DNA of 20,741 nucleotides from a virus (IMGVR_UViG_2630968533_000002); one strand, 5' to 3'; shown: positions 1-19,481, numbered from the stretch's first letter. Notes: generated from the letters alone by a model not told the origin. Translations and numbers: made by a program.

Positions 1-837
1 CTATTTTTTCTCTGTAATTTTTACACTGTTTTCCAACTGCTTGATGCTGACCTGCGGGGTCGGCAACTCCTCAGGCATGGTTCCGCCAAGTTCCTGAATG
101 GTTTGCCTCACCTTGCGACCCACGTCAAAGTGTGTGGTGTTAGCTTGCTGTTTTGAATTCACGCCATCCCGCTTGAGTTTTTCTTCTGTTTGGGTAGCTC
201 GAAAGAGATTAGCCGCCAGTTCTGTTGAACCCATATGATCCAGGATCTTCTGACTCTTTTTCAGCCCCTTCCGCTGATGGATGGCTTTCTGATCTAATCC
301 ACCATACAGTCCCCGGTAACCATGATTCTGAAATATGGCGAAATCGATAGCTGTCGCTACCCCAGCTTGCTGCGCTGCCTCAACTAATTGTTTGTTATGT
401 TCTTTCAACTCATTTCTCAGAAAAAGACGCTTTTCGTCTTCACGAAGTTGCCTGAAAGCTTCATCGTCAGCCAGCTCCTGCCGTCGGGTCTGGATAGCAA
501 AATAAGTTTGCCCTACTGCAATAACCGGTTTCGCAGGGTCGCCGTTTTGTACTACCAGGTAACAGGCATAGCGGGAGAGATGAACATCTTCAAGTTCTCG
601 TTGAGCCCCTGAACCTAATACAACCATTTTGGTGGTTTCAACGAAATGGTCAGATGCAGCTTGATTGCTGGCTTCGCACGCTTGAGTCGCGCGGGCCAGT
701 ACCTTTTGAAAATTGCGCCAGTCCCGATAATCCAGTAACGGTGCCAATTCTCTCGCTGACCAAAATTCTTGCCCTTCAGTGCCATAATGCCGTATCTCTT
801 CAAAAGGTTGATGATGTTCGTTCATTGCCCACTCCAT
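1..837 (-). CDS. dinD: DNA-damage-inducible protein DinD-like; complete, stop at 1-3; alternative start at 825 (MNEHHQPF...)
   Basis: 278-aa ORF whose sequence I recognise from memory as E. coli DinD; canonical LexA box 34-49 bp upstream; GC content typical of core chromosome. Confidence 0.75.
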   Translation of the reverse strand: MEWAMNEHHQPFEEIRHYGTEGQEFWSARELAPLLDYRDWRNFQKVLARATQACEASNQAASDHFVETTKMVVLGSGAQRELEDVHLSRYACYLVVQNGDPAKPVIAVGQTYFAIQTRRQELADDEAFRQLREDEKRLFLRNELKEHNKQLVEAAQQAGVATAIDFAIFQNHGYRGLYGGLDQKAIHQRKGLKKSQKILDHMGSTELAANLFRATQTEEKLKRDGVNSKQQANTTHFDVGRKVRQTIQELGGTMPEELPTPQVSIKQLENSVKITEKK

Positions 838-2302: not shown

Positions 2303-2590
2303 TTATCGTAGCTGGCAATCTTTATCGCGATAACGCCTGAAGTACCCTCTCGCTTCCTCATCCATACCAAGAGCCGAATGAGTCCGCTTAACTGCCTGTC
2401 TTAAATCTCCGAATCTGTCTGTAGTTGCTGGTGGGCGTGCCGCCTTACGGATACATTCAGAGCGTCTGTTTGCTGCATGTTCACGTTCTTTATCGCCATC
2501 TGCCAGCATCATGACTTCTGCCCATCGTGCGGCAGCTCTCCGGTATAGCCCTTTTGACTCCAGCTCTTCAGCTTTCCTGTCCCTTATCAT
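2303..2590 (-). CDS. Small regulator, PerC-family-like (95 aa)
   Basis: ORF with N-terminal AEELESKGLYRRAAARW motif that I recall as typical of PerC/Pch-type activators; start lies 37-63 bp from a tandem operator array. Confidence 0.5.
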   Translation of the reverse strand: MIRDRKAEELESKGLYRRAAARWAEVMMLADGDKEREHAANRRSECIRKAARPPATTDRFGDLRQAVKRTHSALGMDEEARGYFRRYRDKDCQLR

Positions 2591-4741: not shown

Positions 4742-6847
4742 TTATTGAGCTTCTTTTTGTGATGCCTGTGCGACTCTGGTGAGCGATTGTGTGACCGTAC
4801 TGATCGCTCTGTCATATGCTGTGCTACCTTTTGGCGTATTTGCCAGACGTAACAAGGCATTTCGTATAACAGGGCTTTCGTATGCCTTCGCTGCTCCGCC
4901 TACGGCACCAGCAGCAGGAACAACAAACGCAGCCGTTTTTAGCATCCCCGCTAATACTGCTGCGTTTATGATGCCACCACCAACTAACAATCCATAAAGC
5001 TGCTGACCATTTAAGTTTTGAACGTTCGCTTTTGCCGCGTGTCTTGTATCGTTGAGGTATTTAATAACGCCGTCCAGTTCCTTTCCATGTACGCCTTTAA
5101 AGAAAGTTGCTGATTGCTTCCTGTTCCGGTGTAACGCATTAATAAACTTTTCAACACTAATATTTCCAGACGGATCAGTCGCCTTATCTACAGCATTCTG
5201 AACTATGGCTGCTCGTGCGTTTTGCCTACCATTGTCATCCAGAAGCCTGTAAAGCTGAGAACGTTCTGATGGGCTTTGGCTAAAAACGAGTTTTGTTACA
5301 TCCTCAGGCGTGGCCTTGCCGCTGGCTATTGCCTTTTGAACGCGCGTTCTTCCCATCATGTCATTGAATTTAGACCATGAGCGATCAACCCTTGCCATAT
5401 TAATGGCTTCGTCTGCTCCAAGATTTTTGGCTACGGCTTTTTTCATATCCGCCGTATATGCCTTGTAGATAATATCGCTGGCTTTCTGGAGCGTATCTTT
5501 ATCAACAGTGTCAGATGACGCCATAAATCTCTTTCGAAGATCGGTTCTGTTTTCCCTCGCCAGACGCAGGTCATTTGGTCCGCTGGTGATATCGTCTTTA
5601 AATTGCTGCAAGACTTTTACCGCGGCTCTATCCTGAGATTTGCCCGGGCGGCTTAACACGGCAATCTGATTGTCGATAGCTTTTACCGTGTTTGAGAGAT
5701 CGACAGGGGTATCCCCCATAGCGTCAATTATGCGGTTATATCGCTTTCCTGCTGCCTCAATGAATTTTTGTTGCCCTTTAGTCGCAGATTCATAAAGCTG
5801 TTTATCAGAAATGCCACCCAGACCATCGCTAAATGTTCTGACTAAATTTTCTCGTGCTTGTTGTTGATTCAGCCGATTCTTACCGGTTCCAAAAAAAGGA
5901 ACTCTTTCGCCTAATGTCTGAGCCTGACTCTGCATAAAGGTTTTATCTTTCAGCATGTCACTGGTCATTAACGGCAGATTTCTTTCCGATGCAAAGTCGA
6001 CAGCAGCCTTTGCTTCAGGCGACATATCACCACGAACAGCCCTCGAAACCGCACTCGCTGTATTTTCCAGCCCCTTACCAATACCACCAATGCCAGCAGA
6101 AATTACCGTTTGTAACGGATCAATACCTTCTCCACCAGCAAGGCTGGTGGCTCCCTGTAGTGCTAAATCTGTAGCTGCTGATTTTCCTATGGCACCAAGC
6201 ACCGTTCCAGCCCTGCCCGCTGGTGTAAACGCCAGCGCATTAGCCAGAAACGATGCCACGTCTTGCGGCGATAAACCCGGCTTGTTCAGAGCATAATCAC
6301 CGGATGGCAGGGAAACGATAGTGTTACCCTTCTCATCCTGCCTTAATTTCGCTCCCATGCTCTGAAGAATCTTTTCCTGAGATGCGTCAGAGCCGAAAAG
6401 TTGAGACCATCGAGCTTTTAGAGCATCCATGCTGAGTGAGGTTAACTCTGGGGCAAGGTCGACATTTTGCAGTCTCTCCATCTCTGGAGTCATTCGGCTT
6501 TCGCCTGTTATAGCATCGCGCATCGCAGCCCCAAGACTGGCTCCCTGTTCTGCTGAACGCTCAAGCCCCTCTCTTTGCTGAGTAGCTAACTTTGCATACC
6601 CTGACGCAAGAGAATTATCAGATGATGTATGTTGAATATTTTGAGTTGCTGATTGGGCTCGGTCTATTTCATTCGTTGATGGTAGTGGATAGGCAGCATA
6701 AAAAGCCTGCTTAGCCTGTGCTACACTTTCTCCGGCTTGCGGGGCAACGACTTCATTGAAGTATTGCTCCTGAGCCTGCGCTTTTTGTTCTGGTGCTAAC
6801 GCCTGATACTGTGGAGAGGCGATAACATCTTTCCATGCTTTAGCCAT
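4742..6847 (-). CDS. 701-aa Ala/Gln/Gly-rich protein with hydrophobic Gly-rich C-terminus; P22 gp16-like ejection (DNA-transfer) protein candidate
   Basis: Long ORF, start overlaps upstream stop; composition and position as last gene of the 153/225/473/701 series; similarity to gp16 inferred from size, order and composition only. Confidence 0.7.
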   Translation of the reverse strand: MAKAWKDVIASPQYQALAPEQKAQAQEQYFNEVVAPQAGESVAQAKQAFYAAYPLPSTNEIDRAQSATQNIQHTSSDNSLASGYAKLATQQREGLERSAEQGASLGAAMRDAITGESRMTPEMERLQNVDLAPELTSLSMDALKARWSQLFGSDASQEKILQSMGAKLRQDEKGNTIVSLPSGDYALNKPGLSPQDVASFLANALAFTPAGRAGTVLGAIGKSAATDLALQGATSLAGGEGIDPLQTVISAGIGGIGKGLENTASAVSRAVRGDMSPEAKAAVDFASERNLPLMTSDMLKDKTFMQSQAQTLGERVPFFGTGKNRLNQQQARENLVRTFSDGLGGISDKQLYESATKGQQKFIEAAGKRYNRIIDAMGDTPVDLSNTVKAIDNQIAVLSRPGKSQDRAAVKVLQQFKDDITSGPNDLRLARENRTDLRKRFMASSDTVDKDTLQKASDIIYKAYTADMKKAVAKNLGADEAINMARVDRSWSKFNDMMGRTRVQKAIASGKATPEDVTKLVFSQSPSERSQLYRLLDDNGRQNARAAIVQNAVDKATDPSGNISVEKFINALHRNRKQSATFFKGVHGKELDGVIKYLNDTRHAAKANVQNLNGQQLYGLLVGGGIINAAVLAGMLKTAAFVVPAAGAVGGAAKAYESPVIRNALLRLANTPKGSTAYDRAISTVTQSLTRVAQASQKEAQ

Positions 6848-8268
6848 TAATCACCCCATAGTGAAGAAAAATTACTGCTGGCTGCTGGCTGTGATACCTG
6901 CTCAGATTGCGGCAATGTCTGCGACGAAGAAGAAGTTCCTCTGTCAACTGCTGAAATAACCCGCAAAGCATCATAAGCTCGACCAGAAGCAGCTTTCAGC
7001 GAATTGAACTGGTTTTCCATCTTCCTACGCTTGGTATCAATGGTTTTTGTGGAATCACCAGGCTGAGGGAAATACATTTGATAATATTTGGACATTTCAG
7101 CTGGTAGGATAGATGCCCCTGTTTCCTGACGGAGTATTGCCATTATTGCGTCATTAGCATTAACAACGTATTGCTGCTCTGTTGGGCTGAGCGTTAAGTT
7201 AGCCAGCGTCCCATTACCCAAAGCATTATTAATGATCGCCACTCGCTGTGGGCTAAGCTGGTCTTTCAGTGTATCTATTGAATCAAGAGCATCCCTAACT
7301 CTGTATGCAAATCCAGCAGCTTTTTTAGCCCCTTCTGGCGACTTTTCCATGATCTTTTGGGCTGTTGGCAAAGCTATTGGACGAAACCCATCTCCAGATA
7401 TTGGCTGGTTTAGTTTTCCCTGCTCTTCACTTCCGTCTGTGTAGTATTTTGTGACAGTGCCATCATCGTTTTCTCTAACACTCATTAATTTTTTGGCGTT
7501 TGTATTAATTCCAGCCGCTGCCGCAAATGCCGCAGCCCCCTCTGGATCCGCCTTTAACATTTGCGCGTACTGATTGTAATTCTGCATTGCGGCTGTTGGT
7601 GCATATGCTGACGTTAACGCATTTGCTCGGCTAATATCCTGCCCTCTCGCCTGAAGTGCTTCTCCAGCCTGATTGCTGCGGATTGTCTCTGCCAACTTGC
7701 CACGCTCAATATCCCGACCTTCCATTCGATCTTTGATATCGAAGTACTTCTCATGACCGAGAGAAAACAGTGCCATACTACCAGCAAGCCGCTGGAATCC
7801 CTGTGGATCATTAACATGCATTTCGGCAACAGACTCAGGAGAAATCCCCAAGCGACGCATTTCATCTTCGTTATCTGCTATGAATTTTCCAAATGCCCCA
7901 GTTCCGAGCGAAGATGCGATTTGAGCACTAGTCGCAAGATGACCAATAGAATTTCTCTGGTCGTCATCAATAAAGCCCATCCCTTTCTGAACGCTTTCAA
8001 ATTCTTCTGGATACTCAGAAATAAGACTGCGCATTTTGTTTCTGTCTCCAGACTCAAAAGCCCCGGCATATGCTTTCTGAAACTCTGCTTTACGCTGTTG
8101 TTGACGTGCCTGCTGATTAATCTCAGCAACGCCTCTTATCCCCTGTAGCGCCATTAAACCTACGTTTGGCTGCTGCTGATACTGCACAGGCTGAGGAACG
8201 GAAGAACGAGGAGCATTATCATTTTGCGGTGCCATGCTAGGCAGCCCGCCAAGTTGCCATGTCGCCAT
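6847..8268 (-). CDS. 473-aa protein; P22 gp20-like ejection protein candidate
   Basis: Long ORF translationally coupled to both neighbours; size close to P22 gp20 (about 471 aa, from memory). Confidence 0.7.
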   Translation of the reverse strand: MATWQLGGLPSMAPQNDNAPRSSVPQPVQYQQQPNVGLMALQGIRGVAEINQQARQQQRKAEFQKAYAGAFESGDRNKMRSLISEYPEEFESVQKGMGFIDDDQRNSIGHLATSAQIASSLGTGAFGKFIADNEDEMRRLGISPESVAEMHVNDPQGFQRLAGSMALFSLGHEKYFDIKDRMEGRDIERGKLAETIRSNQAGEALQARGQDISRANALTSAYAPTAAMQNYNQYAQMLKADPEGAAAFAAAAGINTNAKKLMSVRENDDGTVTKYYTDGSEEQGKLNQPISGDGFRPIALPTAQKIMEKSPEGAKKAAGFAYRVRDALDSIDTLKDQLSPQRVAIINNALGNGTLANLTLSPTEQQYVVNANDAIMAILRQETGASILPAEMSKYYQMYFPQPGDSTKTIDTKRRKMENQFNSLKAASGRAYDALRVISAVDRGTSSSSQTLPQSEQVSQPAASSNFSSLWGD

Positions 8269-8945
8269 TAGAATCCAAGCCCCCCAACAAGACCAATAAG
8301 CCCACCACCAATAGCGCCTGCCGCAGTACCTATTCCAGGAACAACGGAACCAAGTTGAGCACCCGCTAAAGCGCCTGATGCTGCCCCACCAATACCACGC
8401 GCAAGACTGGATGGCTGCTGCGCCTGACCTGCACGAATAGCGCCAAGCCCCTGCAAGAGTTGTCCGGTATTATTGGCGTAGTTTTGCCCTGCCGTTGCCT
8501 GCCCTGATGCCGCATTCATCCCGACATTTAGCAGGTTTCCATAATTTTGCATTTGCCCACTAAGCCAATTGTTATAAAGCATGGGCGCAATGGAAGATAA
8601 CTGGTTACTGGTAGCTGTTGAGCCAAGCCCCCCGGTAGCTTCTGCTGAGACAAGGTTCTGATAACGGGCCTGATCTGCCTGTGTTTTATATAAACCAGAA
8701 CCAAAGAAATCATTCGCGGCTTTATTCTGCCCTTCCAGAGTCATCAGTCCTTGTAGTTGTTGTAAAGCAGGCAATCCGACTTCTGCATACGGCTTGAGAT
8801 TATTCATCACCGTATTCCACTGCTCGCGCTGCAAATCAATTGCCTGCTGCTGGGCCTTCGCCTGAGCTTTAGAGGCACCACCATCACCGCCTTTTTCGTA
8901 TACGGCACGATTGAGATGTTTATGAGCTATATGGGTAATTAACAT
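8268..8945 (-). CDS. 225-aa protein with Gly-rich hydrophobic C-terminal tail; P22 gp7-like ejection protein candidate
   Basis: ORF overlapping neighbours; C-terminus GIGGAASGALAGAQLGSVVPGIGTAAGAIGGGLIGLVGGLGF; size close to P22 gp7 (about 229 aa, from memory). Confidence 0.7.
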   Translation of the reverse strand: MLITHIAHKHLNRAVYEKGGDGGASKAQAKAQQQAIDLQREQWNTVMNNLKPYAEVGLPALQQLQGLMTLEGQNKAANDFFGSGLYKTQADQARYQNLVSAEATGGLGSTATSNQLSSIAPMLYNNWLSGQMQNYGNLLNVGMNAASGQATAGQNYANNTGQLLQGLGAIRAGQAQQPSSLARGIGGAASGALAGAQLGSVVPGIGTAAGAIGGGLIGLVGGLGF

Positions 8946-9400
8946 TCGCTGAATTCCTTATATTGTTGCCGAGTTAACTGATAAAGCGTTACGCCGACGG
9001 GTTTACCACATCTGATATAAGCATCATCAAGGTGACCAACACGGGTAGCGCCAAGCAAACGGATAATTGCCCGTCCGTATTTGGTGGTGTCAGGAACCAT
9101 GGTAATGCTGTTAAGGAATGGTGAGTTTTCGAGAAGCCATTTGCAGAATAATCGATGCCCTTGCAGTGCATATTCACCACGGAATCCGGGGTCGTACACC
9201 GCATGGCATTCAACAATGCTATGCCAGAAGTTACGCACTTCATGAACGCCAGCCAGCACCAATCCTTCGTAGATGCCGAGATATACCGCATCAGGCTTGA
9301 TGTAGTACGTGTGCCCCGGCTCAACAATATTTTCGGTATTGCCAGGATCGTTAAGAAAGGCCTGTAATCGCACAGGGTTATCAATAAATTTTAGTTCCAT
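8939..9400 (-). CDS. 153-aa protein, first large gene of the operon; gp14-like position
   Basis: ORF overlapping the 225-aa gene by 7 bp; function unknown; assignment by position only. Confidence 0.6.
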   Translation of the reverse strand: MELKFIDNPVRLQAFLNDPGNTENIVEPGHTYYIKPDAVYLGIYEGLVLAGVHEVRNFWHSIVECHAVYDPGFRGEYALQGHRLFCKWLLENSPFLNSITMVPDTTKYGRAIIRLLGATRVGHLDDAYIRCGKPVGVTLYQLTRQQYKEFSEC

Positions 9401-11314: not shown

Positions 11315-13669
11315 TTAAAAAACATCATAACCCCCCATACCGATCAGACGGGCAAACGCAGCCTGTAGAACTCCGACCTCTGGTAGTTCGTAGAACACGC
11401 CATTCCCACGGTCTGGTCTTCCATGCTTCACCAGCCCCATTTGTGCAAGTGACTTACCCAGTAGTGATCTGGCTGCTGGTTCTTTAAGCTTTTCCCCACG
11501 CTCAAGCGACCACGCTACAAATCGACTAACCATATCCTTTGCAAACAAACGGACTTCGCCATTAAACGGAGGTTCATTGATTAGCTCGCCATAAAGAAAC
11601 AATTCAACGCCAGACAGCCCCAGCAAGATTTCTTCACGTAAGGCATCGGTCTGTGGCGCTCGTTGAGGGTCAAAACCTGATAGATCCACCCCTTTAAGAT
11701 GCCAAAGCAACTTTGCGGCACCGCCATCATTAAGCCAACTGTACAGCCGATCAAAATACTCCCGGCTCTGTGCTTTTTCAGGAGATGGCTCAAGCACGAG
11801 ATAGCGGCGCTCTCTTATCCCTGCCTGTAATACCTGTGTGCTGTTACTGGCAAATATCAACCGGGCAAAATTCGGCATTGGTTCAGCATCAATTCCCTTG
11901 CGCTCAAGGTTAAACGTCGGTTCGCTAATAATCGCTTTAAGTCTGTCAGCTTCAGACGGCTTGTGGATCGTCACTTCGTCAGCAAATACCAGTAGCTTGT
12001 TAGCAAGTATTGAATTGAAGCGCCCTGAAATATGTCCCGCCCCGTTAATGTGGGCGGCGTACTGCCCCAGTATTTGCAGCAGCGGTTTAACCGTTGTGCC
12101 TTTCCCTGTGCCCGGGACAGATTTCATTACGATTGCCACGGACGGTTTTTCATCAGGCTTTTGGATAATGTGCGCCATCCACTGGATAAGATATTGGTAT
12201 GCCTCTTCATTCCCGGCACAGACAACCTGCAACAGGTGATTAAGGTATACCGTGCAATCTCCTTCAATTGGTTCCAGTGCCAGCCCCTCATACAGATTAA
12301 AAACATCGTCAGGGCATTTGTCTGGTACTGGATAAAATCCTACGCCTCCTGGCTTGTAGTTCTTCCCACTCCATGACAGCCACGCCGATCCCGCCAGCTT
12401 TCTGGCGACTCTCGGTTTATGATGAAAATAATGCTGAAATTGTGATAAATCCTCGAAAACGTGCGATACACCGCCGGTTTGAGAAGGCTTTAGCGACACC
12501 ACCTTGTGTTTCCCGCCGATGGTGACATGCGTAAACGTCCGGTTGATTTCTTCGAGGACAGCAATTTCATCATCGCTTAACACCTCGCCAGAACTGATCT
12601 CATTCAGCGCCCCGACTGACTGTTTGTGATTTTTCACCTGCGCCCCTTTCCCCCGTGGCTGGTACATCGAATCTTTAAATGCTGCTGTGGCTGCCGCCAG
12701 CCCGTGTTGTTGGTGATAGTCGTTCCAGTCGGCTTTATAGTCAGTCGGTGGCAGAGACACCCAGCCAGCTACGGAAATAGCGGCCCTCTCTGCGGCATCT
12801 TTCCCCGTGTTGATCCCTCCACTTTCGGAGTTTCCTTGCTGGTGATCGTTATCTGCGGCAATGATGATTTGTGCCTGTGGATATGTTCTGCGCATGACTT
12901 CCGCTACTGGCAACAGGTTGCCAGCGTCGATTGCTGCCACTGTCATTGCGTCAGGGCGAATTAAATGGCACGACAGGGCGGTAGCCACCCCCTCAGCAAT
13001 TATGATGCTGTGAGGTCGTTTCTGTGCGTTTATGGCGTGATATGCCCCCCGCTTTGCCGAACCTGTCAGGAGTCTTTTTTCACCATGTGAGGTAATAGTC
13101 TGTGCTGCTGTGACTGCGCCGGATTTATCCACCAGCGCCAGCAATAGAGATCCATCTGGCAACACGGGAAATGTAAAATCACCTACCCCTTTCGCAACCA
13201 GATAATCAGATTTGCTGTTTACAGCCTTTCTGCGCATGTCATCAAACTGACGGGAAAACGTATCCCGTCTTTGTTGTTCATCCTTCTCTGCCCTTTTCAG
13301 GCGCTCCTGTTCGCGTCGCTGGCGCTCGGTTTCCAGTTGTTCCCGTTTCTGGCTGGTGGCTTCTGGTGTTTCTGTTGTCCGGTAATCAATACCCAGAACA
13401 TCAGCGGCAAGCAGCGCCGCCTCTGTTGTGTCGCAGTTATTTACGCGTTTAATTAAATCCAGCCCATCACCAGCGCCGCACTGATTACAGATGAAGCTAC
13501 CGCGCCCGTTGTCATCGAACCGGAATCGATCTTTGCCCCCACATGCAGGGCAGGGAGCATGACGGCGAGGAGAGTCAGGGACATTTATGTTCAGGCAGCC
13601 CAGCACATGAGGCCAGTTGTTTTCAGACGCACTGATAACCTGACGGATAAGATCAATGTTTCGCATCAC
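11315..13669 (-). CDS. P4 alpha / D5-type primase-helicase (784 aa)
   Basis: N-terminal CxxC..CxxC zinc-ribbon (APCPACGG...ICNQCGAGDG), TOPRIM-like AADND motif, C-terminal helicase Walker A (VPGTGKGTT) and Walker B (LLVFADEV). Confidence 0.85.
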   Translation of the reverse strand: MMRNIDLIRQVISASENNWPHVLGCLNINVPDSPRRHAPCPACGGKDRFRFDDNGRGSFICNQCGAGDGLDLIKRVNNCDTTEAALLAADVLGIDYRTTETPEATSQKREQLETERQRREQERLKRAEKDEQQRRDTFSRQFDDMRRKAVNSKSDYLVAKGVGDFTFPVLPDGSLLLALVDKSGAVTAAQTITSHGEKRLLTGSAKRGAYHAINAQKRPHSIIIAEGVATALSCHLIRPDAMTVAAIDAGNLLPVAEVMRRTYPQAQIIIAADNDHQQGNSESGGINTGKDAAERAAISVAGWVSLPPTDYKADWNDYHQQHGLAAATAAFKDSMYQPRGKGAQVKNHKQSVGALNEISSGEVLSDDEIAVLEEINRTFTHVTIGGKHKVVSLKPSQTGGVSHVFEDLSQFQHYFHHKPRVARKLAGSAWLSWSGKNYKPGGVGFYPVPDKCPDDVFNLYEGLALEPIEGDCTVYLNHLLQVVCAGNEEAYQYLIQWMAHIIQKPDEKPSVAIVMKSVPGTGKGTTVKPLLQILGQYAAHINGAGHISGRFNSILANKLLVFADEVTIHKPSEADRLKAIISEPTFNLERKGIDAEPMPNFARLIFASNSTQVLQAGIRERRYLVLEPSPEKAQSREYFDRLYSWLNDGGAAKLLWHLKGVDLSGFDPQRAPQTDALREEILLGLSGVELFLYGELINEPPFNGEVRLFAKDMVSRFVAWSLERGEKLKEPAARSLLGKSLAQMGLVKHGRPDRGNGVFYELPEVGVLQAAFARLIGMGGYDVF

Positions 13670-14024
13670 CGTACCCCACGTGGTCTATAGCGTTTGCGAT
13701 ATGGCTAACCAGCATCTGCCACTTGGTTATTCCGTAATCAGTCAGCATGCCATCATTGTTTAGCCACATATCAAATTCAGCGGTTGTCGCAAGTTTCCAC
13801 TTATCGCCGTGGACAGTCCTCATTGCTGGGTACATGAATGCGCAAATCAGATCACAAACATCTGACGGCTTCAGAGATGTAGTAATGGTGCGTCCCTCTG
13901 GCGTCTGAATTGCCATTTTCTCTTCACCAGTAGAATGAAGGTTATGAATCCACACAGCGCCAGCAATCTTTGCCACCTGCTCTCCGATTGCGGAGCTAAG
14001 CGCCATTTCTGCATTTTCACGCAT
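13653..14024 (-). CDS. Hypothetical small protein (123 aa; alternative start at 14006)
   Basis: ORF in the same-strand chain, overlapping both neighbours. Confidence 0.5.
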   Translation of the reverse strand: MRENAEMALSSAIGEQVAKIAGAVWIHNLHSTGEEKMAIQTPEGRTITTSLKPSDVCDLICAFMYPAMRTVHGDKWKLATTAEFDMWLNNDGMLTDYGITKWQMLVSHIANAIDHVGYGDAKH

Positions 14025-14358
14025 GAGAACCTCCCGCTACAGTTGCGCCCATGTCATTAACCATGCTTTGCCATATCTCATGCCCGACGTCAGTCAATCC
14101 GTCCTTAGTGACGCAACGATCAAGAAGCTCTATCCCCACGGTTTCCCACTGCGGGTAGAACACTTTCATGGCTGCCAGTGCGTAACTATCGATCAGGCTG
14201 CGAACGCCTTTTACTCCATTGACGATTTCCACACGGACGGCCTCTCCGTCCGCATCAATCATGAAATAGTCCCCGCCGCTGGTGGAGGTAATGTGGTTAT
14301 ACAGTGCTGACGCATACTTATTTGCCAGCGCATTCAGTCGGAAATTTTTAGTAATCAT
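14017..14358 (-). CDS. Hypothetical small protein (113 aa)
   Basis: ORF in the same-strand chain; no family recognised. Confidence 0.5.
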   Translation of the reverse strand: MITKNFRLNALANKYASALYNHITSTSGGDYFMIDADGEAVRVEIVNGVKGVRSLIDSYALAAMKVFYPQWETVGIELLDRCVTKDGLTDVGHEIWQSMVNDMGATVAGGSHA

Positions 14359-14368
14359 GGCTCCATCC

Positions 14369-14971
14369 TCAGTGCGTCACTGGTTCCGCTGGCATGCCGT
14401 TTTCATTCAGTTCAGCTATAAAGCTGTTGTGAAGTTCAGCAAGCGTTTCACGACCAAATGGAGTCAGTGCTCCTTGTTCCACATCCATCATGGCTCTGTA
14501 GAAAATGATGGCGCGTTCTGTGCCAGACTCGATGCCAAAACGTTCTATCATCGCGCCCTCAATGTTGTTTGCCATAGCGAGGCGCTCTGCTACTGGATAC
14601 AGCGGCATGGCGACGATGCCGTTGGAATAAACAGCCACTTCGGAAGGATTGCCAGTATCATCAATGATGCTGACAGTGCCGTTTTCCTCTCTCATTTCCA
14701 GCATGAATACTGTTGCGATCAGCCATCTCCACATAATGACGTTATGCTGTGATGTGTAATCGAAATATCCCTGGTTGCCGCCATCGGCAATAGCGAGATG
14801 TATTGACATACCTTCATCTGGTTTATCGTCATAATCCCCGGCATCCAGACGATTTACGGCATCAATATATGAAACGGCCTCAACGCGTTCTGTCATGCCA
14901 TCGTTGCTGCGGTACGCGATGTTTACGCCGTCAGGCGTTGCTTCTGCATGGAACGTTAAGAAATTATTCAT
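14369..14971 (-). CDS. Hypothetical acidic protein (200 aa from MNNFLTF; the ORF track extends it to 15076)
   Basis: ATG at 14971 overlaps the upstream stop in an ATGAATAA arrangement with an AGGCG Shine-Dalgarno-like sequence; preferred over the longer ORF for that reason. Confidence 0.5.
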   Translation of the reverse strand: MNNFLTFHAEATPDGVNIAYRSNDGMTERVEAVSYIDAVNRLDAGDYDDKPDEGMSIHLAIADGGNQGYFDYTSQHNVIMWRWLIATVFMLEMREENGTVSIIDDTGNPSEVAVYSNGIVAMPLYPVAERLAMANNIEGAMIERFGIESGTERAIIFYRAMMDVEQGALTPFGRETLAELHNSFIAELNENGMPAEPVTH

Positions 14972-15185
14972 GTTTCGCCTCGCCTGAATGATTCTGTAAC
15001 TCATATTTGCCCAACAATTCGTCTGCTTCCTGAATAGCTTCTGGTACGCCATTGAGCAGTGACATAACCGCGCCAATCATTAACTTGTCTCTGTTGCTGG
15101 GGCTGGCCCCTTCAAGCCAGAACCCTAAAACAGTCTGAACCTGTTCGATGCGACATTGCGCTTCAATGAGCTGGATGTTGGTCAT
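14964..15185 (-). CDS. Hypothetical small protein (73 aa)
   Basis: ORF whose start overlaps the upstream stop (ATGA). Confidence 0.45.
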   Translation of the reverse strand: MTNIQLIEAQCRIEQVQTVLGFWLEGASPSNRDKLMIGAVMSLLNGVPEAIQEADELLGKYELQNHSGEAKHE

Positions 15186-15445
15186 TTCGCACTCTCCACA
15201 TCGATTAAACTGATATCTATCAGGGAGGTAACTTTTTGTAGCCAGCTATTGATTACTGTCGCCTGTTCCCCTCCCACAGAGGGAATAATCTCATTCATCA
15301 CATGAACCAGACCTGTGCGCGCTCTGGTAAGCCGTTCAGTCGCGCAATCTGCGGGAGTGAATGTGTCTGGATATGGCTCTTCACGCCCCAGCAATGATTC
15401 AATTTCCAGCTCACACGGATGACGATAAATTAAGTTGATATTCAT
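15182..15445 (-). CDS. Hypothetical small protein (87 aa)
   Basis: ORF whose start overlaps the upstream stop (ATGA). Confidence 0.45.
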   Translation of the reverse strand: MNINLIYRHPCELEIESLLGREEPYPDTFTPADCATERLTRARTGLVHVMNEIIPSVGGEQATVINSWLQKVTSLIDISLIDVESAK

Positions 15446-15636
15446 TTTTCACCCCCAAGAATTACCAGCTCGGCACGGGCATCGTTAACCAAAGATGAGC
15501 ACGCTTTAATCGCATCCACGACATCAGCAGCGTCCATTTCTTCAGCTGAAAGACTGACAGCAACCAGGACAGCCGCTGCTTGCTCGATTAATTGAAGTGC
15601 GGACGTAAGGCGAGGGGTATTAATTGAGTTATTCAT
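15442..15636 (-). CDS. Hypothetical small protein (64 aa from MNNSIN)
   Basis: Internal ATG at 15636 with G-rich Shine-Dalgarno-like sequence, overlapping the upstream stop (ATGAATAA). Confidence 0.4.
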   Translation of the reverse strand: MNNSINTPRLTSALQLIEQAAAVLVAVSLSAEEMDAADVVDAIKACSSLVNDARAELVILGGEK

Positions 15637-16657
15637 TGGTTGCCCCCGTTTTTCCTGGCATTTCGCCACCTTCCAGCAGGAAATGAACGTCACGAACGGC
15701 GAGATCCAATATCGCGAGTAACGCCTTCAGTCTTTCGTCTCGTGAGGGAGAGTTGCTCACCAGAATGTCGTTAATCACTTCTGTCAGTGTGATGATCTGG
15801 CTTGTGCGTTCGAGGGGATCCATATGCACATCGTAGGTTTTAATCATGTGCCACCTCCATGCGGATACGACCAGCAAAAAAGCAGACGTGATCGCGCACC
15901 AGAGAACGGCGAGCATCGCGTTCAGACTCGGCAGCAATATGATGAATTTTGGCGGTAATTGTCGGGCAATCGCGGCGAACTGCGGCGATAATCCAGATAA
16001 ATTGCGGTTTTTGGGTAGGGGTAGTAGCCAGCATGTGGCAGCCTCCTTGATTGATGGTTTATAGCCACCGCCCAAGAGACCAATCTTGCTGGCGGTGGAC
16101 TGTACGGAGTTGGCCTTACTGGCAATCAAGGAAACCAGCCTACCCGAAGGTAGCCCCATACAGCCCACCATTGATAAGGTGTGCGTGTGCGCCGATACAA
16201 AAAAAGACGCTGGCGCGTCATGTATCGCCTCGATTGTCAGCGGGAGGCCAATCCCGGCACCCGTTTTATGAGGTGCCTTATAACCATAAACCGTGTTGCC
16301 GCATAACGGCAAGCTCTTTTTTATGGACTCCGAAAACTCACTATTGGAAGCACCAGATGCACAATACATCGCGCTCATTTCGTTAACGTCGCGAGTGTGG
16401 ACGAAGGTTTTTGTGGAGTCACTACGCGAGCAGAGAAAGCCATCTACGACCAGAAATTCTCTGGCGCTGCCGCTGACCTTCTCAACGCTAACATCATCGA
16501 CCGTAATTTCTGACATAGTTAAGGCATCCGCTCCTACCACCAGTAAATGATAAACTTTGCTTGTATCTGCTGTATTAATGCCTGACTTTGACGCCATATT
16601 GCTGGATTTTGGCGACATGCCAGCCAGTGAAAATATCTTCTTCTGGACGGGTATCAT
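15629..16657 (-). CDS. 342-codon ORF, Ser/Leu-rich; the C-terminal 72 codons (15629-15847) may be a separate gene; a second ORF is embedded out of frame at 15840-16034
   Basis: Start ATG at 16657 overlaps the TGA of the upstream 59-aa gene (ATGA); internal MIKTYD start at 15847 has a GGAGGTGG Shine-Dalgarno; true gene structure is uncertain. Confidence 0.4.
15840..16034 (-). CDS. 64-aa ORF, possibly Icd-like (host cell-division inhibitor family), embedded out of frame in the 342-codon ORF
   Basis: Canonical AAGGAGG Shine-Dalgarno 7 nt upstream of ATG; [10 protein letters not shown]...[14 protein letters not shown] motif loosely recalls Icd-like proteins of P4-type elements (memory only). Confidence 0.4.
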   Translation of the reverse strand: MLATTPTQKPQFIWIIAAVRRDCPTITAKIHHIAAESERDARRSLVRDHVCFFAGRIRMEVAHD

Positions 16658-16833
16658 TGGTTAACCTCTGCAAACTCCTTCATGAAACGCGCCAGCGGTT
16701 GTACGCATGGCGATTGATACCCGTCGCGATAAAACGTCACTCGGTTGTGAGACACGCTTTCGACAGTAACGAGTGCTCCGTGGGCATCTTTGTAGCGTTT
16801 TTGAGGTTGTGGTGTTCCTGTTGGCTTAGACAT
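16654..16833 (-). CDS. Small conserved prophage protein (59 aa, DUF4222-like); the ORF track gives a longer version to 16920
   Basis: ATG at 16833 with GGAGG Shine-Dalgarno 6 nt upstream, overlapping the stop of the antirepressor-like gene; family assignment from memory, low certainty. Confidence 0.45.
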   Translation of the reverse strand: MSKPTGTPQPQKRYKDAHGALVTVESVSHNRVTFYRDGYQSPCVQPLARFMKEFAEVNQ

Positions 16834-17659
16834 TGACCGCCTCCAGACGCTTGGCGAGCCAGCGTTGCGACAGGCGGGTGAGTTCTCCTTTGCGCTGCTC
16901 ATATTCCATGCCCATATCAATTAACGTGATATTGGTGCTTTCGAGATATGAGAGGTGCTCAAGTTGTTCTGCGTTCATATGGTCGCGAGGTTCGCCAGAA
17001 TAGCCATTTATCCGCGCCCACTGCTTAGCAGTTAGCCCACCAAGAACGATACGAGAAATCATATTGCTCTCGTTTGTGTAGTGGTGTTGCTGCGTCGTTT
17101 TCCCCTGCTCGGCACGGGCCATATTCAGCGCATCGCACATTGGCTTAAAGTTGTTTGCGGCACTGATACGGGCTTTTAGCTGGCGACGATAGCGGGCGGC
17201 GATTTCAGGCACGCTACGCTGTAATTCTTCCTCGCACTGGATGAAATAACGACGGATAGCGCGACCCTGATCATTGCGTTCGATCATTGCCAGTTCTTTC
17301 GCCATTCCGACACTTAACAGATAGTCTTTGCCGGGTCTGCCAGACTGCTTAATCTTGCTGTAAGCCGCGCCATTCGGGCTTTTCCCCAAATTTGGGGAAA
17401 TTGTTTTATGGACTGAGTAATCGTGCCCAATGGTGAAGTCATATTCAGAGATGCGATCAGTGATCCATGTAGAGAAGTCTTTTCCCACGCCCAACGCTTT
17501 GTGTAACGCTTTTGCGCTAACAATATTGGTTTCACGCCCACCGATATGACCAGGAATAACCGGGACAATTGCGGCAAATTCATTACCGTTAATTGTGCCC
17601 AGAGAGGCGTTCAGATGAGGGGCGGCCTCAGAAATTAATCTGCTTTTTTCGATGTTCAT
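16826..17659 (-). CDS. Phage antirepressor-like protein (Ant/KilAC-type), 277 aa
   Basis: Motif LLSVGMAKELAMIERNDQGRAIRRYFIQCEEE matches my memory of the conserved Ant/KilA-C domain core; not verified by search. Confidence 0.5.
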   Translation of the reverse strand: MNIEKSRLISEAAPHLNASLGTINGNEFAAIVPVIPGHIGGRETNIVSAKALHKALGVGKDFSTWITDRISEYDFTIGHDYSVHKTISPNLGKSPNGAAYSKIKQSGRPGKDYLLSVGMAKELAMIERNDQGRAIRRYFIQCEEELQRSVPEIAARYRRQLKARISAANNFKPMCDALNMARAEQGKTTQQHHYTNESNMISRIVLGGLTAKQWARINGYSGEPRDHMNAEQLEHLSYLESTNITLIDMGMEYEQRKGELTRLSQRWLAKRLEAVNV

Positions 17660-17671
17660 TTTCAGTCTCCG

Positions 17672-18103
17672 TTAGGCGGCGTTAAACGCGTCCGGGTAGA
17701 GTTTCAGAATGTCGGCAATTTCCTGCTGAGAAAGTCCGTTGTGATCATTTATGCTCGCAAGATGGTTAACATGAGTGATCACTTTCAGAACATCACCACG
17801 GCAGGAGAAACGGTAGCGAAGGTGTGTTCCGATACCATCAGGATTCTTTTCGTCGATACGCTCCAGAGTGATTCCAAGCTGGCGTTCTAACTCTGTTGCA
17901 TAGTTACGACCAGAAGACAGACGACAGTAGCGAAGAATGTCATTTTCTGTCCATCCCTCTATACCAGTACGCAGCATATAGACTCTGGCACGATGCTTTT
18001 TCGGTGTGCGCTTTGGTGCTTGAAGGGATTTTGTAAGGGGCGTAACATCAGATACGCGAATATCTGAATTAGCCGCCTGTAATGGGCGGTTTTTCTTTTC
18101 CAT
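17672..18103 (-). CDS. Hypothetical basic protein (143 aa)
   Basis: ORF immediately downstream of alpA with its start overlapping the alpA stop; no family recognised. Confidence 0.5.
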   Translation of the reverse strand: MEKKNRPLQAANSDIRVSDVTPLTKSLQAPKRTPKKHRARVYMLRTGIEGWTENDILRYCRLSSGRNYATELERQLGITLERIDEKNPDGIGTHLRYRFSCRGDVLKVITHVNHLASINDHNGLSQQEIADILKLYPDAFNAA

Positions 18104-18306
18104 CAGACCACCTTCCCGCGGCGTTCTGCCAGCCAGTTGTGAATCTCAACCGCATCAAACGCAGTTATTTTTTCTCCCAGCTTTACCGGACGTGGTAGTG
18201 AACCGTTTCTTACTTTACGGTCGATGGTGGATACACTAACGCCCAGCAATTCAGCCAGGCGGAAGCGTCTGATATAGCCTTTTGTAGGAATAGTGTCGGT
18301 GTTCAT
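18103..18306 (-). CDS. alpA: AlpA-family excisionase/transcriptional regulator (67 aa)
   Basis: Small basic protein with helix-turn-helix LAELLGVSVSTIDRKVRNGSLPRPVKLGEKITAF..EIHNWL, typical of AlpA/Vis-type proteins; sits one gene away from the integrase as in CP4-57-type elements. Confidence 0.7.
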   Translation of the reverse strand: MNTDTIPTKGYIRRFRLAELLGVSVSTIDRKVRNGSLPRPVKLGEKITAFDAVEIHNWLAERRGKVV

Positions 18307-18420: not shown

Positions 18421-19386
18421 CTACCCCTTACCGTTGGCGGCAGCACGTAAGTGTCTCAAAATCACATCTTCATTTGTGATTGCTAACGGTGGAATTTCGT
18501 CTTTATGAGCCACTATGCAATCCCGCCACTTCTCAGGGCTTATTTCTTTCTTTTTGCCACGGCATTCATCAGGATACTTTGACAAAAGATATATTGCTGA
18601 TTTGAAAAGTTTTTCCCTGTTTTCAGCATGTCTCTCGGCATTATGGTTGCTATTTTTTATTTCAGGTATTAGTTCCTGTTCTACCGCCATTTCGTATCGT
18701 TTTTTGCTCTTAGCTGCGTCAAAACTTCCATTAACCTTTGCGTCGTGAAGGTATTCTAAATCAGCCTTTGTTATATAAATGTTTTTATCTGACAGGCTAC
18801 TCAGGTGAATCTGGGAACTTTGCATTTTGAATTTATATAGATCACAATCAAATGTTGCTTCAAGTCGCACATATGGCTCTCCACATTCTTGTGAATGATA
18901 ATGTCGTTTTGTACTACCGCGTACACGCAACAATCCACATGCAATTGATTTTCTTACAATAAAAGAGTTTTTGCCAATTTGTTCAAAAACATTTTTATTG
19001 TCTCTGTCTTCAACTGTCAGTGGTTTATGTGCATAAAATAGCTCATAAGCACCGCTTTCAGATGCTGGGATATAAACTTCGTTGCTTGCGCTGGTAATAA
19101 GAAAAGGAAATGTAAACCTTACTTCTTCTGGGTACATAAGTAATAAATCAGTTATAAAATCAGCATCTTTTTTGAAGTGGATGGTGGCATCAGCTTCAAT
19201 GAAATCAAGAAAGTCAGCATAGACATAAAAGTCTATATGTAGTCTATCTTTCCAATGCCATATATCATCAATTTCACAATTTAATAATTTTGATGCTCGC
19301 TCTATCGTGCAGTAGTCCAAAGGTGGAATACCTGATTCCTGCCATAAATTTCTATGCACCGCAGTTGTTTCATGAGAGTCGTTCAT
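18421..19386 (-). CDS. Orphan AT-rich 321-aa protein of unknown function (cargo gene between int and alpA)
   Basis: Long ORF with AAAGGTGA Shine-Dalgarno-like sequence; GC clearly below neighbours (by eye about 37%); own terminator; no recognisable domain. Confidence 0.65.
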   Translation of the reverse strand: MNDSHETTAVHRNLWQESGIPPLDYCTIERASKLLNCEIDDIWHWKDRLHIDFYVYADFLDFIEADATIHFKKDADFITDLLLMYPEEVRFTFPFLITSASNEVYIPASESGAYELFYAHKPLTVEDRDNKNVFEQIGKNSFIVRKSIACGLLRVRGSTKRHYHSQECGEPYVRLEATFDCDLYKFKMQSSQIHLSSLSDKNIYITKADLEYLHDAKVNGSFDAAKSKKRYEMAVEQELIPEIKNSNHNAERHAENREKLFKSAIYLLSKYPDECRGKKKEISPEKWRDCIVAHKDEIPPLAITNEDVILRHLRAAANGKG

Positions 19387-19481
19387 TGCGTCACCTTTTA
19401 CGCTGCGCCTTATTTTGTGATTGAGCCAGGCGGTAAGGCTTCCCGCTTTTCGCCCCGTCGAGCTAGGCTCAATCTATTCAG

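Follow-up and report, generated by a model that had tools for sequence, protein, structure and literature searches.

An EcCIMP1-like satellite island of Escherichia coli with a probable P4-type RNA switch ahead of a chain of overlapping small genes

The viral sequence IMGVR_UViG_2630968533_000002, a stretch of 20,741 nucleotides (nt) referred to here at its full length as the window, carries on its minus strand a chain of small, overlapping open reading frames (ORFs) that ends in a primase gene. The window is best read as a Gram-negative phage-inducible chromosomal island (PICI) resembling EcCIMP1, the PICI of E. coli MP1. In this satellite of E. coli, a probable RNA switch and an early replication operon are homologous to the leader and left operon of phage P4 and to the immI leader of P1. 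We assign this reading, as the best explanation overall, a probability of roughly three in four. The stretch is probably switched by two small RNAs of the isrK and C4 families, both located inside a 342-amino acid (aa) ORF of the chain. A first-pass annotation, made from the sequence alone, had described about ten coupled ORFs of 59 to 200 aa, expressed in stoichiometric amounts from one early promoter; its observation is partly confirmed and its interpretation partly supported. The elements of the switch, in the direction of transcription, are:

15629..16657, minus: 342-aa eta-like frame, "ash family protein" in RefSeq, crossing the promoter-like site, both RNA genes and icd
16283..16312, minus: internal promoter-like site, TTGCCG / 18 nt / TATGGT, 5' of isrK at the position of P4 PLE
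16200..16276, minus: RNA of the isrK / c4-a1b1 / P4 seqA type (Rfam RF01394, 65 bits)
16251-16245 and 16236-16228, minus: a1 and b1, within the isrK element
16219-16206, minus: GC hairpin that, with the U run to 16200, forms the intrinsic terminator closing isrK (terminator scan)
16088..16175, minus: antisense RNA of the C4 / P4 CI type (Rfam RF01695, 79 bits)
16134-16123 and 16116-16110, minus: C4 b' (loop of hairpin 2) and a' (single strand after it)
16042..16083, minus: downstream C4 targets a2 (16083-16077) and b2 (16053-16042), the P4 seqC equivalent
15840..16034, minus: icd, Icd/Kil-like, 64 aa (NCBIfam phage_ICD_like NF033153, 72 bits against a cut-off of 25)

The isrK and C4 matches score well over the curated Rfam thresholds. 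Because the c4-a1b1 family (RF03163) overlaps the isrK match in locus L004 and in P4, the isrK element can be identified from its sequence as the a1/b1 target element of C4. The Shine-Dalgarno sequence of icd, AAGGAGG, lies within the downstream target b2, 8 nt ahead of the start codon at 16034. Both RNA families match in 12 of 12 cross-genus loci with a homologue of o200, a protein of the chain, and the interval 15993-16293 is the sole phage-like DNA in 13600-17000 (86% to a P1-like phage, 83% to Shiga toxin (Stx) phages). The chain first described as a series of protein genes does consist of coupled ORFs, but it is interrupted, inside the 342-aa ORF, by isrK, C4, the intrinsic terminator and the promoter-like site.

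The three-way complementarity between C4 and its two targets co-varies over 19 aligned modules, which represent the window, related E. coli islands, a capsid-forming PICI-like (cfPICI-like) island, an e14-like prophage, an Stx prophage, a P1-like phage, P4 and nine other genera. In all 19, a' is complementary to a1 and a2 over 7 base pairs (bp) and b' to b1 and b2 over 7-14 bp, and b2 lies over the icd Shine-Dalgarno sequence. The modules represent 10 different a' and 15 different b' specificities; the complementarity score is 7-10 within a module compared with 4-5 across modules of different specificity. All 646 pair cells of the 19 sequences hold standard pairs (100%), whereas slid controls reach 33-47% pairing. 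Double-sided, compensatory changes are found in 20 of the 34 pairs, with six of seven in each of the a'-a2 and a1-a' helices.

Near-identical islands can differ in this module. When window positions 16077-16251 are compared with positions 11489-11677 of L001, a 98% identical island, the whole a1/a'/a2 triplet differs (AGGCCAA in the window, GTCCTAA in L001), with matching targets in each. EcCIMP1 differs from the window, within the RNA module, only in the C4 specificity segment 16140-16197. These differences look like swapped immunity specificity between otherwise identical satellites. Differing C4 specificities on near-identical islands point to immunity-type switching between competing satellites.

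The remaining genes of the coupled series are listed below; presence counts, here and later, come from a comparison of 14 elements.

18103..18306, minus: alpA, AlpA-family helix-turn-helix regulator (Pfam Phage_AlpA, E 2e-8), first gene of the upstream, late-type coupled route
17672..18103, minus: 143-aa ORF (o143), 76-98% aa identity in related islands, with weak winged-helix hints at most in Pfam
16826..17659, minus: Ant, an AntA/AntB (Bro-network) antirepressor-family protein (Pfam AntA, E 1e-21)
16654..16833, minus: DUF4222 protein, 59 aa (Pfam PF13973, E 6e-25)
15629..15847, minus: o72, 72 aa, a lineage-restricted ORF and candidate gene with a GGAGG Shine-Dalgarno sequence and an overlap with icd
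15442..15636, minus: o64, 64 aa, small helical protein with length-conserved homologues (41-72% identity)
15182..15445, minus: o87, 87 aa, homologues in 12 of 14 elements at about 50% identity across genera
14964..15185, minus: o73, 73 aa (phrog_20558, E 3e-9), in 6 of 14 elements
14369..14971, minus: o200, 200 aa, the most conserved accessory protein (phrog_1515, E 5e-47)
14017..14358, minus: o113, 113 aa (phrog_37628, E 2e-49), in 8 of 14 elements
13653..14024, minus: o123, 123 aa, a diverged o113 paralogue (BLASTP E 1e-4, 25% identity over 91 aa)
11315..13669, minus: primase of the P4 alpha type with zinc ribbon, Toprim and DUF5906 domains (Pfam domains taken from the homologue in L025; phmmer against P4 alpha, E 2e-44), the last gene of the chain

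The chain of small overlapping genes is genuine and conserved. The seven stop/start overlaps recorded at first pass are all exact. At 16657 (ATGA), the TGA of the DUF4222 gene lies over the ATG of the 342-aa ORF, and at 15847 (ATGATTAA) the icd stop lies over the o72 start. The 15636 and 14971 junctions are both ATGAATAA, those at 15445 and 15185 are both ATGA, and that at 14024 is ATGCGTGA. At 16833, the Ant stop lies over the DUF4222 start with an 8-nt overlap (ATGTCTAA), while at 18103 the sequence TGATG joins the alpA TGA to the ATG of o143 (1-nt overlap). The end of o123 overlaps the primase start by 14-17 nt (13666/13669). Coupled junctions run unbroken from alpA to the primase, and the sole gap within the chain is the 10 nt from o200 to o113. 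The ORFs are, as had been claimed, tightly coupled upstream of a primase, now assigned to the P4 alpha type; the size range of 59-200 aa applies to all but the ORF starting at 16657, which has 342 aa (15629-16657).

Such a series lies far above chance expectation. When ORFs of 55 aa or more are considered, the minus strand of 13600-17700 has eight overlap links and the plus strand one; 300 dinucleotide shuffles gave 0.19 links on average and never more than 3. In the 14 related elements, which come from about ten enterobacterial genera, the junctions from icd to the o200 homologue are all of the -4 or -8 type, with one exception. In homologues RefSeq lists the small ORFs individually, and the ash/eta-like ORF is the sole larger gene. 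Recombination breakpoints coincide with gene boundaries, and gene swaps at these boundaries give the chain a modular composition.

The switch and the operon have counterparts in P4 that share both order and homology: seqA/isrK, CI/C4, a target on the ribosome-binding site of the first gene, a Kil/Icd-like gene, and an alpha-type primase. The P4 CI region matches RF01695 with 75 bits, and an isrK/c4-a1b1 match falls at P4 seqA; IsrK and C4 have been equated with seqA and CI (PMC3632133, PMC4825925). P4 and the window also share 8-nt overlaps between operon genes and a long frame that opens 5' of the internal promoter or promoter-like site and runs over both RNAs. The P4 analogy drawn at first pass therefore holds for the leader RNAs, the kil/icd first gene and the homologous primase, but not for epsilon, no homologue of which was found with Pfam, phmmer or hhalign. 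The space that epsilon, ORF151, and Cnr occupy in P4 is held in the window by seven other small ORFs. Additionally, P4 eta is coupled directly to the alpA homologue, whereas in the window the coupling of the eta-like frame is to DUF4222 and Ant; this frame also lies one base out of register with icd and fuses with the gene that follows.

The summary of Forti 1999 in PMC10111431 describes a constitutive promoter inside P4 eta, the transcripts of which are soon terminated via CI/seqA interactions. In the same account, Kil is a truncated product translated on read-through. Eta is translated at full length solely on transcripts of a late promoter lying upstream; it is coupled to the alpA homologue, and its translation prevents termination (PMC10111431).

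From P4 and P1 we infer repression, Rho termination, bypass and RNA processing for the window as well. In the quiescent island, the promoter at about 16312-16283 would yield a short transcript, part of which would end at the isrK/seqA-type terminator (16200), while the remainder would be processed to a stable C4/CI-type RNA. The a' and b' segments of C4 would pair with a1/b1 upstream and with a2/b2 downstream. Because b2 is the icd ribosome-binding site, icd would stay untranslated, and its C-rich RNA would be exposed to Rho termination. The 5' half of icd (16030-15910) is the most C-rich, G-poor part of the chain (C/G ratio 1.6-1.9). The chain down to the primase would stay off because each later gene would need a ribosome from the preceding one. 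On induction, a helper phage would switch on alpA, and translation would continue through alpA, o143, Ant, DUF4222, and the 342-aa frame, which would traverse the RNA genes and icd and pass ribosomes on at 15636. This translation would block RNA pairing and termination, so that the small proteins and the primase would be made and the island would replicate.

Two assumptions of the first-pass annotation are not supported. Rather than a single early promoter, the evidence points to two entry routes, the internal PLE-like site at 16312-16283 and the upstream route from alpA, with the probable RNA switch, which the first pass had missed, placed between them. Coupling had also been thought to fix stoichiometry; with P4 and P1 as precedents, it is probably better explained as a relay of translational repression, or of its bypass, along the operon.

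The immI region of P1/P7 contains the same RNA families and follows the same target logic: b2 covers the ribosome-binding site of icd, which is the first gene and is coupled to the one after it. However, the product controlled in P1/P7 is Ant, whereas in the window Ant lies upstream of the switch and the small ORFs and primase would be controlled. The arrangement of P1 immI, in which icd is coupled to a downstream ant, is not found here, and o72 to the primase follow icd instead. The isrK-orf45-anrP region of Gifsy-1 has, like the window, an isrK family match with a terminator. Its processed downstream RNA, STnc1160, has been likened to P4 CI, and the signal is passed on by translational coupling (PMC4825925). 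Gifsy-1 differs in that it controls an antirepressor and an antiterminator and in that IsrK is a trans activator.

Following Gifsy-1, the isrK-type RNA of the window could instead be an activator or decoy that binds the long transcript or C4 in trans and acts as an ON switch for icd. Since a1/b1 mimic a2/b2, they can compete for C4, and it is by such pairing that Gifsy-1 IsrK activates translation of the downstream ORF (PMC4825925). In P4, however, which has the same type of downstream operon, seqA pairing belongs to termination and immunity (PMC10111431, PMC3632133). The sequence of the window favours neither co-repression, as in P4, nor activation, as in Gifsy-1, for the short isrK-type RNA. 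An activating role is rather unlikely, and we give it modest weight beside the P4-type switch.

Five small proteins of the chain are conserved across genera: icd, o87, o73, o200, and o113. The icd gene is present in 14 of 14 elements, and its product matches the kil region of P4 (phmmer E 7e-10; Kil corresponds to the C-terminal 65 residues of the P4 leader ORF), which suggests a division inhibitor of the Kil/Icd type. The first reading of the sequence had recognised nothing in the chain other than a possible Icd-like protein. That assignment is borne out by the NCBIfam match, and the 59-aa ORF proved recognisable as well, as Pfam DUF4222. The o200 gene is also found in all 14 elements (split in one), with 550 homologues in Enterobacterales and a ratio of nonsynonymous to synonymous polymorphism (pN/pS) of 0.32. 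The slot of o73 is taken by an unrelated 66-aa family in 7 of the 14 elements, and o113 is itself coupled to the primase, by a -8 junction, in elements that lack o123.

The other members are restricted in distribution. Among the 14 elements, o123 is confined to the E. coli lineage of the window, and o64, which has homologues down to 41% identity elsewhere, occurs in the window lineage only and is absent from one variant island. The o72 ORF, intact in EcCIMP1, is likewise limited to the window lineage, where its known relatives are near-identical or frameshift variants. Diverged o72 homologues considered for an estimate of the nonsynonymous to synonymous substitution rate ratio (dN/dS) proved to be frameshift or deletion variants and were discarded.

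These proteins could form mainly an arsenal for host takeover, anti-defence or helper derepression, with the overlaps fixing stoichiometry and the RNAs being incidental. The cross-genus conservation of the five proteins and the purifying selection on o200 speak for such a role, as does a modular composition with boundary swaps, which is typical of accessory genes. Epsilon is present in the equivalent operon of P4, and EcCIMP1 alters superinfection by its helper (PMC11773190). However, neither Pfam nor phmmer turned up a relative of epsilon (PF25738), ORF151 or Cnr from P4 in the chain, and hhalign comparisons of o113, o87, and o200 with Cnr, epsilon, and ORF151 were negative. PADLOC defence families gave no match to the four chain proteins scanned (o87, o200, o113, and o123), PDB profile searches gave no credible match to the o200, o113, and o87 families, and the Pfam, NCBIfam, PADLOC, and PDB scans revealed no function-giving relative of any small protein beyond icd.

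Structure prediction, proposed at first pass as a check, did not help. With 43 homologues as input, AlphaFold2 modelled o200 at a predicted local distance difference test score (pLDDT) of 59, with no Foldseek hit in the PDB at E <0.5. The single-sequence model of o113 had a pLDDT of 46, and both models were too poor for use. The C-terminal half of o200 gave only a weak match to the o113 family (E 0.019, probability 2.5%). A few o200 homologues carry precomputed DUF5375 tags, which could not be reproduced here. A joined four-ORF query of a large protein database returned almost exclusively Ash-type ORFs ending in o72, which is uninformative for o64, o87, and o123.

All 12 cross-genus loci contain the RNA module, and the ribosome-binding site that it targets is the first one in the chain, which argues that the RNAs are not incidental. 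The arsenal idea is compatible with the P4-type switch as regards the products but leaves the architecture unexplained. As a full account of the region it seems unlikely, although it carries real weight. Roles in host takeover, anti-defence or derepression are guesses; as part of the P4-type reading, and with the same confidence, the small proteins are early accessory factors. Since o87, o73, o200, and o113 always lie between the immunity switch and the primase, they are candidates for replication control or helper manipulation.

What is commonly annotated as an "Ash family protein" is an open frame superimposed on two RNA genes. In 18 of 20 modules, a long frame opens 120-560 nt upstream of isrK and runs through both RNAs to the icd stop or beyond. 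The frame of the window begins 381 nt 5' of isrK and, being out of frame with icd, overlaps that gene rather than containing it; its last 72 codons are o72 (start 15847). The probability that the extension is open by chance is 5e-5 to 0.03 in 12 of 14 elements and about 0.6 in P4 and L005, the shortest two, and the other two frames over the same extensions contain 67 and 87 stops.

One explanation for this frame is that it encodes a functional regulatory protein and that the Rfam matches reflect conserved coding sequence. Pfam Phage_ASH and PHROG "transcriptional regulator" families do match the ORF, the frame is open in most elements, and a short N-terminal motif, xFPLAGLM, recurs across genera. 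However, the protein-family matches are restricted to the RNA genes: that to Phage_ASH covers aa 124-219, exactly the RNA-gene part, and P4 eta, the historical "cI ORF", matches Phage_ASH too. Changes in this part are compensatory for the RNA helices and lack codon-position bias (14/20/11 at positions 1/2/3; 10 synonymous vs 35 nonsynonymous). For the frame, including its N-terminal part, pN/pS is about 1 or higher, and its residues show no purifying selection. Substitutions 5' of the RNAs in the window lineage are 16 synonymous vs 33 nonsynonymous, compared with 8 vs 2 in DUF4222, and the sequence 5' of the promoter block is unrelated between this lineage and other genera. The position of the frame relative to icd varies by lineage, and a terminator and a promoter lie inside the region. 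A regulatory "Ash" protein is thus very improbable. The interval 16290-16657 was rejected as a conserved protein, as its last 64 nt alone are conserved across genera and its substitutions are not coding-like.

The register of the frame differs among elements. Most share the P4 arrangement, with the frame and icd in one register. Four elements (the window, L001, L003, and L021) lack one base just 5' of the icd ATG, and their frame is offset from icd. Three of these, the window, L003, and L021, keep the frame open across icd until the following gene ends; in L001 a stop closes it 45 nt past the icd ATG. A database protein with the same overprint of icd is fused to an o64-like gene.

Within the P4-type reading, we tentatively propose, at a little less than even odds, that the "Ash" frame is kept open purely for translation, as a conduit for ribosomes that takes helper-induced transcripts over the immunity RNAs, and that the replication operon has two translational entry points. 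In a sub-lineage, the one-base change just 5' of the icd ATG seems to have shifted the frame so that it overprints icd and joins the gene behind it; the fusion partner would be o72 in the window, a 59-aa gene in a Klebsiella element, and the o64-like gene in a third element. The icd ribosome-binding site would then be the entry sensitive to immunity, and passage from DUF4222 into the eta-like frame the insensitive one.

In L012-L023, which are from other genera, the eta-like frames contain repeated peptide motifs (SFETSTRT and FSDITTRGG) about 100-450 nt 5' of isrK, which point to DNA repeats 5' of the immunity RNAs. No Rfam family reached the gathering threshold in these stretches 5' of isrK in L012-L023.

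Several observations weigh against the P4-type switch. The promoter-like site at 16312-16283 matches the consensus at 8 of 12 positions, below the threshold of a generic scan. The eta-like frame of the window is not in frame with icd, unlike that of P4. This frame is broken in at least one 98%-identical island, MDR_56, and annotated as a pseudogene in EcCIMP1, which is mobile, so that an intact eta-like frame may be dispensable. The sole sequence support for a Rho terminator is the C-rich, G-poor composition of 16030-15910. The isrK-type RNA of Gifsy-1 activates translation rather than repressing it (PMC4825925), which makes the sign of the a1/b1 action uncertain. Finally, icd is the only small protein of the chain with a homologue in P4.

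As to the promoter, about 64 nt directly 5' of isrK are the only part of 16277-16660 conserved across genera, and equivalent promoter hexamers, better than those of the window, occur at the same place in other modules. On the plus strand, a terminator-like hairpin at 16296-16312 overlaps the -35 hexamer of the promoter-like site, and the RefSeq annotation of a close relative has part of a gene for a DNA-packaging protein, again on the plus strand, at the equivalent of window positions 16418-16507. The hairpin and the packaging-gene fragment suggest that the spacer 16313-16657 is a remnant of other DNA.

The relation to EcCIMP1 is close. Over 12832-18113 the DNA is 96-98% identical, the gene content from alpA to o123 is unchanged, and both islands carry the same genes for ejection proteins. 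EcCIMP1 is integrated at tRNA-Thr beside proA, and so are close relatives of the window; the attachment (att) core TCCTATTATC is not inside the window. Besides the C4 segment, the two islands differ in the C-terminal half of the primase (DUF5906 in the window, DUF927 in EcCIMP1) and in an extra 321-aa cargo ORF of the window. DUF5906 and DUF927 types are also interchanged in this half among near-identical islands, and the primase is common with relatives over the N-terminal 351 or so residues only (71-85% identity). EcCIMP1 excises only on induction of its P22-like helper, Kapi1, and is transduced by Kapi1; its alpA is helper-induced and needed for excision (PMC11773190). The EcCIMP1 paper, the sole experimental study of the element, covers neither the RNA module nor the small ORFs and treats the genes as hypothetical (PMC11773190).

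Gram-negative PICIs follow a plan of four zones (PMC10111431). The window has the corresponding zones: integration (int and alpA), a Bro zone with the immunity RNAs (Ant, DUF4222 and the Ash frame), replication (the small ORFs and the primase), and a late zone made up of genes captured from helpers. The zones are co-oriented and the island spans about 20 kb, as the plan has it; helper dependence is known for EcCIMP1 itself only. The late zone (4742-9400, minus strand) contains four genes similar to those for the P22-type ejection or DNA-transfer proteins gp14, gp7, gp20, and gp16 (PHROG E 1e-66 to 1e-180), and the island may supply its own ejection proteins. The markers of P4-like satellites in the sense of SatelliteFinder were not found in the window, with no epsilon in the chain and no PHROG or Pfam match to sid, delta or psu in the other window ORFs scanned.

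Matches to 13600-17000 occur in 1,176 of 5,426 complete E. coli genomes, 248 of which hold most of the interval, and the switch offers a testable regulatory model for a widespread satellite. The region adds one more case to a regulatory design, and to a satellite family, that are already described. The main additions made here are an annotated RNA switch, the interpretation of the "Ash" ORF as eta-like, and a conserved protein set that is now delimited.

Other features of the window lie outside the coupled series. A 321-aa ORF (18421-19386, minus strand; GC content 0.38) sits between int and alpA; neither Pfam nor PADLOC matched it. Related islands have unrelated genes at this place (DUF6387 in L003, different ones in L004 and L009), and MP1 and MDR_56 have none. 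It looks like a variable cargo slot. An int-alpA RNA motif, Rfam RF02996 (61 bits; 19407-19473, minus strand), lies just 3' of the integrase gene and occurs in several related loci as well. At the left edge, an ORF (1-837, minus strand) has matches with E 1e-117 to 1e-125 to PDC-S13 of PADLOC and to a specificity subunit of type I restriction systems; this may be a defence gene, at the far end of the island or just outside it. A small PerC-like regulator is encoded at 2303-2590 (minus strand), with matches to phrog_994 and to transcriptional activator families, and its counterpart in EcCIMP1 reportedly silences LEE (locus of enterocyte effacement) expression.

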